In this document: positions 17,564-18,550 of the stretch, one piece after another
How the letters are laid out: the number at the start of each line of letters is the position of its first letter
How positions within the stretch are numbered: position 1 is the stretch's first letter
Source of the DNA: Escherichia phage ECO111 5-P
Sequence record: OR844765
Direction: 5' to 3' (one strand)
Length of the DNA stretch: 64,000 nucleotides
Made by a program: the position numbers and the translations under genes
Notes under the pieces: model-generated
The model's input: only the letters and a program-made list of their open reading frames with translations
Database searches by the model: none
Told to the model about the DNA's origin: nothing

Positions 17564-17762
17564 CATCTCTAACTACTTAGAAGAACCTTTTGACGAAGCA
17601 ATCCCTTATTTGGTAAAACTGTTGGGTCGTGAATTTAAAATTAATTTTGACATCGACCCTTTGAACCCACATGACGTGTCATTTTCAATAAATGGGACTC
17701 CAGTTGAGTATGAGTTCTGTATTGAAGAGGACGGACGTTTTTATTTTAATTTAATGAGATAA
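17547..17762 (+). CDS. hypothetical protein (71 aa)
   Basis: ATG overlapping 3-prime end of gene 55 by 17 nt. Confidence 0.4.
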
Positions 17763-17763
17763 T

Positions 17764-18087
17764 ATGACTACCGAGATTATTGAAAATAAAGAAGCAGAAG
17801 ATGCAGTAGCTAAAATGCTACAAGAAATCCAAAAGAAAAATGAAGCTGAAGCACGTAAAAAATCCGAAAAGATTCTTAAAAAGAATCGTTTTGAACTAAA
17901 CCGTCTTTATGCTCATGCTCAAGAAGCAGCAATTCAAAACAACTTCGAAGCTTACGAATATGCTATTAAGAAATCTCGGGATATTCTACGACAACCATAT
18001 AATGACAAGTTAATTAAAATCCAGTGGATTACTACTCGTCAGGCTATTGAGGACATCGTTAATGGCGCTAGTTCAAACAAAGTTTAA
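17764..18087 (+). CDS. hypothetical protein (107 aa), charged/helical
   Basis: ATG 17764. Confidence 0.5.
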   Translation: MTTEIIENKEAEDAVAKMLQEIQKKNEAEARKKSEKILKKNRFELNRLYAHAQEAAIQNNFEAYEYAIKKSRDILRQPYNDKLIKIQWITTRQAIEDIVNGASSNKV

Positions 18088-18268
18088 ACGTCTTAATCTG
18101 AACGCAGGATTCACCCTTAAATTGGGAGGTCCTCTTTGTGTTAAAATCTCTGAAAAGGAATATCACGACGGTTCTATTACAGAAATTTGTCCGCCTATTG
18201 TAAAGGCAGACCCAAAACAACTCGTGTGGGTCGATTCATTTCAAGTTAAGAAATGGTGGAAACGATGA
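18062..18268 (+). CDS. hypothetical protein (68 aa)
   Basis: ATG with GAGGA SD; overlaps upstream ORF by 26 nt. Confidence 0.35.
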   Translation: MALVQTKFKRLNLNAGFTLKLGGPLCVKISEKEYHDGSITEICPPIVKADPKQLVWVDSFQVKKWWKR

Positions 18269-18307
18269 GAGAAATCGATTTAGGTATTTTCTGAGAGGTG
18301 ATTATGC

Positions 18308-18481
18308 ATGACGAACATCCCGACTTCTGAAAATTTCGATAAAATCCGTAAAGGCAAAGCAGAAAGAACGAGACGTTTTAAAGAGTCTTATGATAAAGCT
18401 AAAGCCGAAGGAACTATTACGTACAAGCCCATTCGATTTAAAAGTTCAAATGAGCCTCTGTACGGTGTACTATGTGGATAG
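18308..18481 (+). CDS. small basic protein (57 aa)
   Basis: ATG with GAGAGGTGA SD; stop lies in the terminator stem; absent from ORF track. Confidence 0.4.
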   Translation: MTNIPTSENFDKIRKGKAERTRRFKESYDKAKAEGTITYKPIRFKSSNEPLYGVLCG

Positions 18482-18505
18482 GAACTCTTCGGAGTTCCTT
18501 TTTTG
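18480..18505 (+). terminator. rho-independent terminator (8-bp stem, UUCG loop, T5)
   Basis: aggaactc-ttcg-gagttcct-ttttt. Confidence 0.8.
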
Positions 18506-18527
18506 CTTTATAAACGGATGATAGAAT
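18502..18527 (+). promoter_or_regulatory. MotA-type middle promoter (TTTGCTTTA box, TAGAAT -10)
   Basis: Box 18502-18510; TAGAAT 18522-18527; same box/-10 pair upstream of gene 39. Confidence 0.55.
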
Positions 18528-18550
18528 GAATTAACTAATGAGGAAATAAT

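Follow-up and report, generated by a model that had tools for sequence, protein, structure and literature searches.

In T4, the gene for the alpha-glucosyltransferase (a-gt) stands between gene 55 and gene 47. The corresponding locus of Escherichia phage ECO111 5-P (sequence record OR844765) raises the question of whether this gene is really absent there and, if so, what takes the place of T4 glucosylation. The locus was analyzed within a stretch of 64,000 nucleotides of this record, referred to here as the window.

The interval between genes 55 and 47

According to its annotation, T4 has the order 55, a-gt.5, a-gt.4, a-gt.3, a-gt.2, mobB, a-gt, 47.1, 47 along transcription, and a-gt encodes 400 aa, as the initial annotation of the window had stated (about 400 aa). 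The T4 interval measures 3152 bp vs 987 bp in the window, where gene 55 stops at 17563 and gene 47 starts at 18551, leaving positions 17564–18550 between them. The following features were assigned to this interval and its flanks, the a-gt.5 to a-gt.2 orthologues by tblastn with the T4 proteins onto the window ORFs:

17006..17563, + strand: gene 55, late sigma factor (90% amino acid identity to T4 gp55, 98.9% to RB69 gp55)
17547..17762, + strand: a-gt.5 orthologue, 71 aa, DUF5491 (47% to T4 a-gt.5, E = 1e-14; 100% to RB69 a-gt.5; PF17595, E = 6e-13)
17764..18087, + strand: a-gt.4 orthologue, 107 aa, DUF2654 (57% to T4 a-gt.4, E = 5e-32; PF10849, E = 3e-27)
18062..18268, + strand: a-gt.3 orthologue, 68 aa from its ATG (69% to T4 a-gt.3, E = 8e-29; phrog_1648, E = 1e-33)
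18308..18481, + strand: a-gt.2 orthologue, 57 aa, DUF5486 (74% to T4 a-gt.2, E = 2e-23; PF17588, E = 1e-26)
18480..18504, + strand: intrinsic terminator-like hairpin with a UUCG loop, plus T-run (fold energy; homologous hairpin 3' of a-gt.2 in T4, RB32 and JS98)
18501..18527, + strand: MotA-type middle promoter motif, TGCTTTA, 11 nt, TAGAAT, predicted for gene 47 (motif scan with the published consensus)
18551..19570, + strand: gene 47, SbcD/Mre11-like nuclease subunit (76% to T4 gp47, 99.7% to RB69 gp47; Metallophos domain)

The start of the a-gt.5 orthologue overlaps the final 17 nt of gene 55. In the ORF list, no ORF longer than 107 aa was present on either strand of 17564–18550, and the 69-bp spacer from a-gt.2 to gene 47 held only the terminator and the promoter, with no a-gt gene. 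The claim that no alpha-glucosyltransferase gene lies between genes 55 and 47, and that the interval contains only four small ORFs (71, 107, 68 and 57 aa), a terminator and a middle promoter, was thus borne out by the ORF list, the hairpin fold and the motif scan.

Far from being fillers, the four small ORFs correspond by sequence similarity to T4 a-gt.5 to a-gt.2 and are conserved orthologues of these genes. Pfam places three of the four in families without known function (DUF5491, DUF2654 and DUF5486), and all four match PHROGs groups of unknown function; a literature search on a-gt.2 to a-gt.5 yielded only that a-gt.4, whose function is unknown, belongs to a small set of uncharacterized ORFs shared by T4 and five further T4-like genomes (PMC1524935). 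Their names are positional, and since the ORFs are kept here without a-gt, they are not tied to it.

Directly 3' of the a-gt.2 orthologue, a stem-loop, AGGAACTC-TTCG-GAGTTCCT, was found at 18480–18499 and was followed by a T-run. Its predicted RNA fold has an energy of −13.9 kcal/mol, a stability that 0 of 200 shuffled sequences attained (z = −3.8). The MotA box TGCTTTA (18504–18510) is continuous with the T-run and is followed, after an 11-nt spacer, by the −10 element TAGAAT (18522–18527), with a GAGGAAA ribosome-binding site between TAGAAT and the ATG of gene 47. With TTTTGCTTTA, 11 nt and TAGAAT, the segment 18501–18527 conforms to a box (a/t)(a/t)(a/t)TGCTT(t/c)A, 11–13 nt and TAnnnT, and would constitute a MotA-dependent promoter; the motif agrees with the published T4/RB69 middle-promoter consensus (PMC1524935). 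The looser pattern TGCTTNA-N10-13-TANNNT occurred 22 times in the window vs 4.6 expected by chance. One predicted hairpin-terminator/MotA-promoter cassette leads directly into gene 47.

The combination of hairpin (CTTCGG loop), MotA box and −10 element was also present 5' of gene 39, the two copies lying at 18487–18527 and 52634–52671 and both containing the 13-mer CGGATGATAGAAT, within which the −10 element falls; the unit at genes 47 and 39 looks like a repeated regulatory cassette. A terminator-like site on the minus strand (18211–18189, antisense in a-gt.3) was dismissed, as the scan returned 2 such sites vs 1.5 expected.

When the region of genes 55 to 47 was compared with T4 by blastn, two collinear blocks were obtained, window 17018–18514 with T4 region positions 13–1456 and window 18549–19570 with 3709–4730. 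The T4 positions between them, 1457–3708 (2252 bp comprising mobB, a-gt, a second hairpin/promoter and 47.1), face 34 bp in the window, and tblastn with the T4 proteins found no counterpart of mobB, a-gt or 47.1 in the window interval. In RB69 (NC_004928) the annotated order is 55, a-gt.5 to a-gt.2, 47, identical to that of the window, terminator and promoter included, and the proteins are 96–100% identical. One base differs in the spacer, the −10 element being TAAAAT in RB69 vs TAGAAT in the window.

Search for T4-type glucosyltransferases

The proteins T4 a-gt, T4 b-gt and RB32 ba-gt (T2/T6-type) gave nothing better than E = 0.01 by tblastn, even with relaxed settings, either in the 64-kb window or in the complete genomes of RB69 and APCEc01, and for b-gt (PF09198) and ba-gt no match with E < 0.3 was obtained in any of the three. 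As a positive control, the same queries found orthologues in Mineola and CC31 at 49–68% identity with E <= 1e-113 (in CC31, 3e-114 and 5e-127 in the controls for b-gt and ba-gt), and T4 a-gt itself scored 862 bits on PF11440. Two candidates for a-gt were rejected. The first, at 4079–4318 of the window (E = 0.01 over 85 aa), was noise and corresponds to nrdC.10, AAA-like by Pfam and PHROGs and present in T4 too. The second, at approximately 71.1 kb of RB69 and hence outside the window, was not significant (E = 0.04).

The absence refers to the 64-kb window and the complete RB69 and APCEc01 genomes, about 105 kb of this phage's genome lying outside the window. The initial annotation had concluded that the T4 glucosylation system is absent, and had pointed to homologues elsewhere in the genome as the thing to look for. 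That conclusion is supported by the negative searches in the window, RB69 and APCEc01 together with the working positive controls, and no such homologues exist in the two complete relatives. It also agrees with the literature, in which RB69 was described as lacking a-gt, b-gt and ba-gt and as containing arabinose (Thomas, 2018; PMC6024577), the absence of these glucosyltransferases being likewise concluded by Lee (2026; PMC13326640). The absence of a-gt and b-gt from RB69-type phages is therefore already known, having been reported in 2018, and by 2025–2026 the chemistry that replaces glucosylation had been elucidated together with its genes. The absence of a-gt here is correct, well explained and ordinary.

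Proposed genes for 5-hydroxycytosine and arabinose

Glycosylation as such would be kept in this phage, carried out by two non-orthologous GT-B enzymes of a type that uses arabinose (PMC13326640), both encoded in the window. Most of the genes concerned form an arabinosylation module at 27.9–34.5 kb, between gene 43 and uvsX, and the second glycosyltransferase stands apart at 55.35–56.45 kb:

27944..28579, + strand: arabinose-5-phosphate isomerase of RB69 gp55 type (97.6% to RB69p055; SIS domain; role as proposed in PMC13326640)
28761..30446, + strand: bifunctional sugar-1-phosphate nucleotidyltransferase and kinase of RB69 gp52:53 / AfhE type (99.5–99.7% to RB69p053 and p052; NTP_transferase and kinase-like Pfam domains)
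30446..30832, + strand: HAD-like sugar phosphatase of RB69 gp51 / AfhF type (99.2% to RB69p051; function from PMC13326640; no Pfam match)
30890..32050, + strand: peptidase-U32-like protein, RB69 gp50 (99% to RB69p050; PF01136)
32329..33045, + strand: thymidylate-synthase homologue, 5-hydroxy-dCMP synthase, RB69 gp48 (99.2% to RB69 gp48; replaces T4 gene 42)
33045..33944, + strand: GT-B glycosyltransferase of 299 aa in the b-gt slot, proposed first arabinosyltransferase, RB69 gp46:47
33945..34493, + strand: nucleotide kinase, RB69 gp45 (98.9% to RB69p045)
42362..42883, + strand: gene 56, dCTPase (97% to RB69 gp56; dUTPase_2 domain)
55353..56453, + strand: second GT-B glycosyltransferase, RB69 ORF003c / gp3 type (97.3% to RB69p003; PDB 9iqz, E = 4e-247)

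No T4-type gene 42 orthologue was found next to imm and gene 43; the sole match was 24% identical, vs 68% between the gp42 proteins of T4 and CC31. Therefore, hydroxymethylcytosine, the substrate of a-gt, is not expected in this phage. The thymidylate-synthase homologue differs from RB69 gp48 by two changes only, D35N and T53N. It keeps the catalytic Cys, a Glu at the position equivalent to E. coli L143 and an Asp at that equivalent to N177, and its motifs LEYPC and QLDF align with the motifs ALPPC and PFNI of td. For RB69 gp48, the conversion of dCMP to 5-hydroxy-dCMP has been demonstrated experimentally, with the oxygen coming from O2 and a flavin as cofactor (PMC13326640). The genes for UDP-arabinose supply (SIS isomerase, nucleotidyltransferase/kinase and HAD phosphatase) were likewise all found, 97.6–99.7% identical to RB69 p055, p053:52 and p051, and the two GT-B glycosyltransferases occupy the RB69 positions.

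Taken as a whole, the locus is best explained if the phage is an RB69-like (Mosigvirus) T-even phage with an empty a-gt slot and with arabinosylated 5-hydroxycytosine in place of the T4 chemistry, a reading to which a probability of roughly 0.93 is given; nothing was found that contradicts it. As far as the published RB69 work can be extended to this phage, it would have neither a- nor b-glucosyltransferase because it decorates its DNA with arabinose on 5-hydroxycytosine instead. In the proposed sequence of steps, the dCTPase (gene 56) would supply dCMP, which the thymidylate-synthase homologue would convert to 5-hydroxy-dCMP, and kinases and the polymerase would then bring 5-hydroxycytosine into DNA. 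The phage isomerase, kinase/nucleotidyltransferase and phosphatase would convert ribulose-5-phosphate to UDP-arabinose, from which the two GT-B glycosyltransferases, one encoded in the old b-gt slot and the other between gene 39 and rIIA, would add one and then a second arabinose.

Gene content, orthology and, through its structure model, the GT-B fold of the 299-aa protein are established here. For this isolate, the modification chemistry of the DNA and the activity of the 5-hydroxy-dCMP synthase are presumed from the RB69 experiments, the proteins being 97–100% identical; in RB69 alone, LC-MS and NMR have demonstrated arabinosylated 5-hydroxycytosine in virion DNA (PMC13326640). Which transferase acts first, and what the U32-like protein does, are inferred in the literature too, and the corresponding individual transferases of phage DLP3 had no activity on 5-hydroxycytosine DNA (Lee et al., PMC13326640).

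It is very unlikely that one of the two window transferases is a relocated, fast-evolving orthologue of a-gt or b-gt. Both have the GT-B fold, as a-gt does, RB69 ORF003c was matched by an a-gt profile with E = 3e-5 (Thomas et al., PMC6024577), and the 299-aa gene stands in the b-gt slot, directly 3' of the thymidylate-synthase homologue. However, neither transferase gave a BLAST, phmmer or Pfam AGT/T4-Gluco-transf signal; Pfam assigned no glycosyltransferase family to either, and phmmer against PDB returned nothing for the 299-aa protein. In the predicted structure of this protein the GT-B fold was seen, and its best structure match was 6kih (sucrose-phosphate synthase, 17.6), with 9iqz (phage HY126 glycosyltransferase) at 14.5. 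T4 a-gt (1y6f) ranked 30th (13.2, 12% identity), behind 29 structure families that are mostly bacterial and of GT4 type, and T4 b-gt was not among the top 60 matches. For the second transferase, a solved structure of a near-identical protein, the phage HY126 enzyme, is available (PDB 9iqz). The likeness of the window transferases to a-gt is one of superfamily and not of orthology. Arabinosylation of a different base remains the preferred reading, and the difference from T4 goes beyond the transferases: base and sugar would both differ, and the transferases have nothing more than the GT-B superfamily fold in common with a-gt.

The T4 system and that of the window follow a common logic, in which a dCTPase and a thymidylate-synthase-family enzyme lead to a C5-oxygenated dCMP and GT-B enzymes transfer a sugar from a UDP-sugar. 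In both, one transferase gene lies directly 3' of the thymidylate-synthase homologue and 5' of uvsX. By analogy with the published type, the base would be 5-hydroxycytosine in the window vs 5-hydroxymethylcytosine in T4, and the sugar would be arabinose made by phage enzymes vs UDP-glucose of the host in T4 (PMC13326640). Unlike T4, the window contains neither a-gt (PF11440) nor b-gt (PF09198), its counterpart of gene 42 is only the distant one mentioned above, and the a-gt slot is vacant. With respect to the Afh clusters of RB69, Acinetobacter phage DLP3 and E. coli phage HY126, all the components named in RB69 were found in the window in the same order, the dNMP kinase of gene 1 lying outside it. 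DLP3 has a third transferase, which adds a third arabinose and has no counterpart in the window; otherwise nothing substantive differs.

Arabinosylation would account for the difference in DNA between this phage and T4. Arabinosylated 5-hydroxycytosine DNA resists many restriction enzymes, and bacterial defences are expected to meet it differently from the glucosylated DNA of T4, which is relevant to host range and phage therapy.

The ORFs at 28761–30446 (561 aa) and 33045–33944 (299 aa) are intact single ORFs in the window, and RB69 is annotated with split pairs at both places (p053/p052 and p047/p046). The intact ORFs are in line with the literature, where the RB69 splits are put down to sequencing errors.

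Distribution and history of the empty slot

The window is collinear with RB69 over its full length (RB69 58330 to 1, then 167560 to 162532) at 92–98% nucleotide identity, and its proteins are mostly 97–100% identical to those of RB69. The assignment of the phage to the genus Mosigvirus follows from this nucleotide identity and collinearity, which link it to RB69 and related phages. Over the interval, Mosigvirus records such as mar005P1 and APCEc01 match at 99% identity, with up to 99.2% for mar005P1, and the closest records are all Mosigvirus. For 147 phage records, RB69 (sequenced in 2003) among them, the alignment spans 80% or more of 16900–18700, nearly always with at least 95% identity (152 records fall in the 95–100% band), and each of the records listed for this segment aligns as one piece. 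An assembly artefact or a deletion private to this isolate is exceedingly improbable in the face of so many independent records. The same arrangement across about 147 records, the RB69 annotation and the collinearity make the absence of a-gt a character of the lineage.

Elsewhere, a-gt is carried by 657 phage records, about 500 of them with an identity of at least 90% and about 143 in the range 60–80%. In a 40-row sample of this ranking, the rows at 90% or more were T4-type coliphages and relatives, and those at 60–80% were Klebsiella or Raoultella phages. The slot that holds a-gt in Tequatrovirus and in some Klebsiella (Jiaodavirus) phages, from a-gt.2 to gene 47, is empty in the RB69 lineage. 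In Mineola (Jiaodavirus), a-gt occupies the same slot and is 66% identical to that of T4, the flanking gp46 and gp47 being 67–70% identical. No a-gt was found in the 55–47 interval of JS98 (Dhakavirus) or CC31 (Karamvirus).

The cassettes around the slot also differ among these phages. T4 and RB32 have a CTTCGG hairpin with the MotA box GCTTTATA on each side of a-gt; Mineola likewise has a-gt between a hairpin/MotA-box pair, with slightly different box sequences, the exact GCTTTATA being restricted to T4 and RB32. The window, RB69 and JS98 have one such cassette each. The window cassette equals the a-gt.2-proximal cassette of T4 through TTGCTTTATAAA and beyond this point resembles the a-gt-distal one (CGGA..GATA.AAT), a mixed match that, as a comparison of short sequences, would fit either a deletion between repeats or an insertion into the MotA box equally well. 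JS98 is like the window in lacking a-gt, in its near-identical hairpin and MotA cassette after a-gt.2 and in its RB69-type arabinosylation genes, and unlike it in retaining gene 47.1 (47 aa), located 3' of the cassette and 5' of gene 47. In a neighbour-joining tree of gp55, gp47 and gp46 from five taxa, the window grouped with T4, then with JS98, and Mineola and CC31 stood outside. The presence of a-gt on this three-gene tree requires either two gains or transfers or three losses, and both fit.

Tentatively, and with slightly less than even odds, the empty site can be taken as ancestral. A module of promoter, a-gt and hairpin would then have entered the MotA box of an existing cassette in T4-type phages and, either independently or by transfer, in Jiaodavirus, and a-gt would at no time have belonged to the RB69 lineage. 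The slots of JS98 and CC31, also without a-gt, support this history, as does the smaller number of steps on the tree; furthermore, the near-identity of the JS98 and window cassettes is what an orthologous, undisrupted site predicts. Nevertheless, the occurrence of a-gt in the same slot of two distant genera, with an identity like that of the flanks, fits inheritance rather than insertion, and a tree of five taxa and three genes is too small a basis for T-even phages, whose genomes are mosaic.

The opposite history is possible but more doubtful: a-gt would be ancestral to the T4-type and RB69-type phages and would have been deleted in the RB69 lineage, between the flanking hairpin/MotA cassettes, as the cytosine chemistry changed. 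The CTTCGG hairpin and (T)GCTT-type MotA box on both sides of a-gt in T4, RB32 and Mineola, and the single window cassette, proximal-like and then distal-like, speak for such a deletion. So does the Jiaodavirus a-gt, whose 66% identity is close to that of its flanks, as vertical descent predicts. Against this, T4 and Mineola, which bear a-gt, are separated on the tree by JS98 and CC31, which do not, and an ancestral a-gt therefore needs three losses vs two gains or transfers. Moreover, the cassettes resemble each other over a short stretch only, as might just as well be seen at a site of insertion.

Additionally, the paired cassettes around a-gt in T4, RB32 and Mineola might themselves have served as the recombination substrate for insertion or excision of the module, with the window cassette as the empty site, although this is considered unlikely. 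If it were true, T-even DNA-modification genes would be exchanged as promoter-bounded cassettes.

Several smaller differences were recorded among these genomes. Gene 47.1, which encodes a small predicted membrane protein, occurs in T4, RB32 and JS98 and is missing from the window (18528–18550), RB69, Mineola and CC31; in JS98 (L012, 16754–16897), the homologous promoter and leader sequence stand 5' of 47.1. CC31 has an unrelated cysteine-rich ORF of 82 aa in the position of a-gt.2 (L011, 13304–13552). Apart from the two ORFs that are split in RB69, the window differs from RB69 in a split HNH homing endonuclease at 54.5–55.3 kb and in an extra DUF7338 ORF. The endonuclease (54499–55310) lies between gene 39 and the second glycosyltransferase, at a place where RB69 has no sequence, and comprises two ORFs: the first encodes 126 aa, carries an HNH motif and matches the N-terminus of T4 MobB at 45% identity, and the second encodes 143 aa and carries a NUMOD3 motif. 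The extra ORF (229–786, 185 aa, Pfam DUF7338) is part of a segment of about 600 bp (197–790) without counterpart at this position in RB69.
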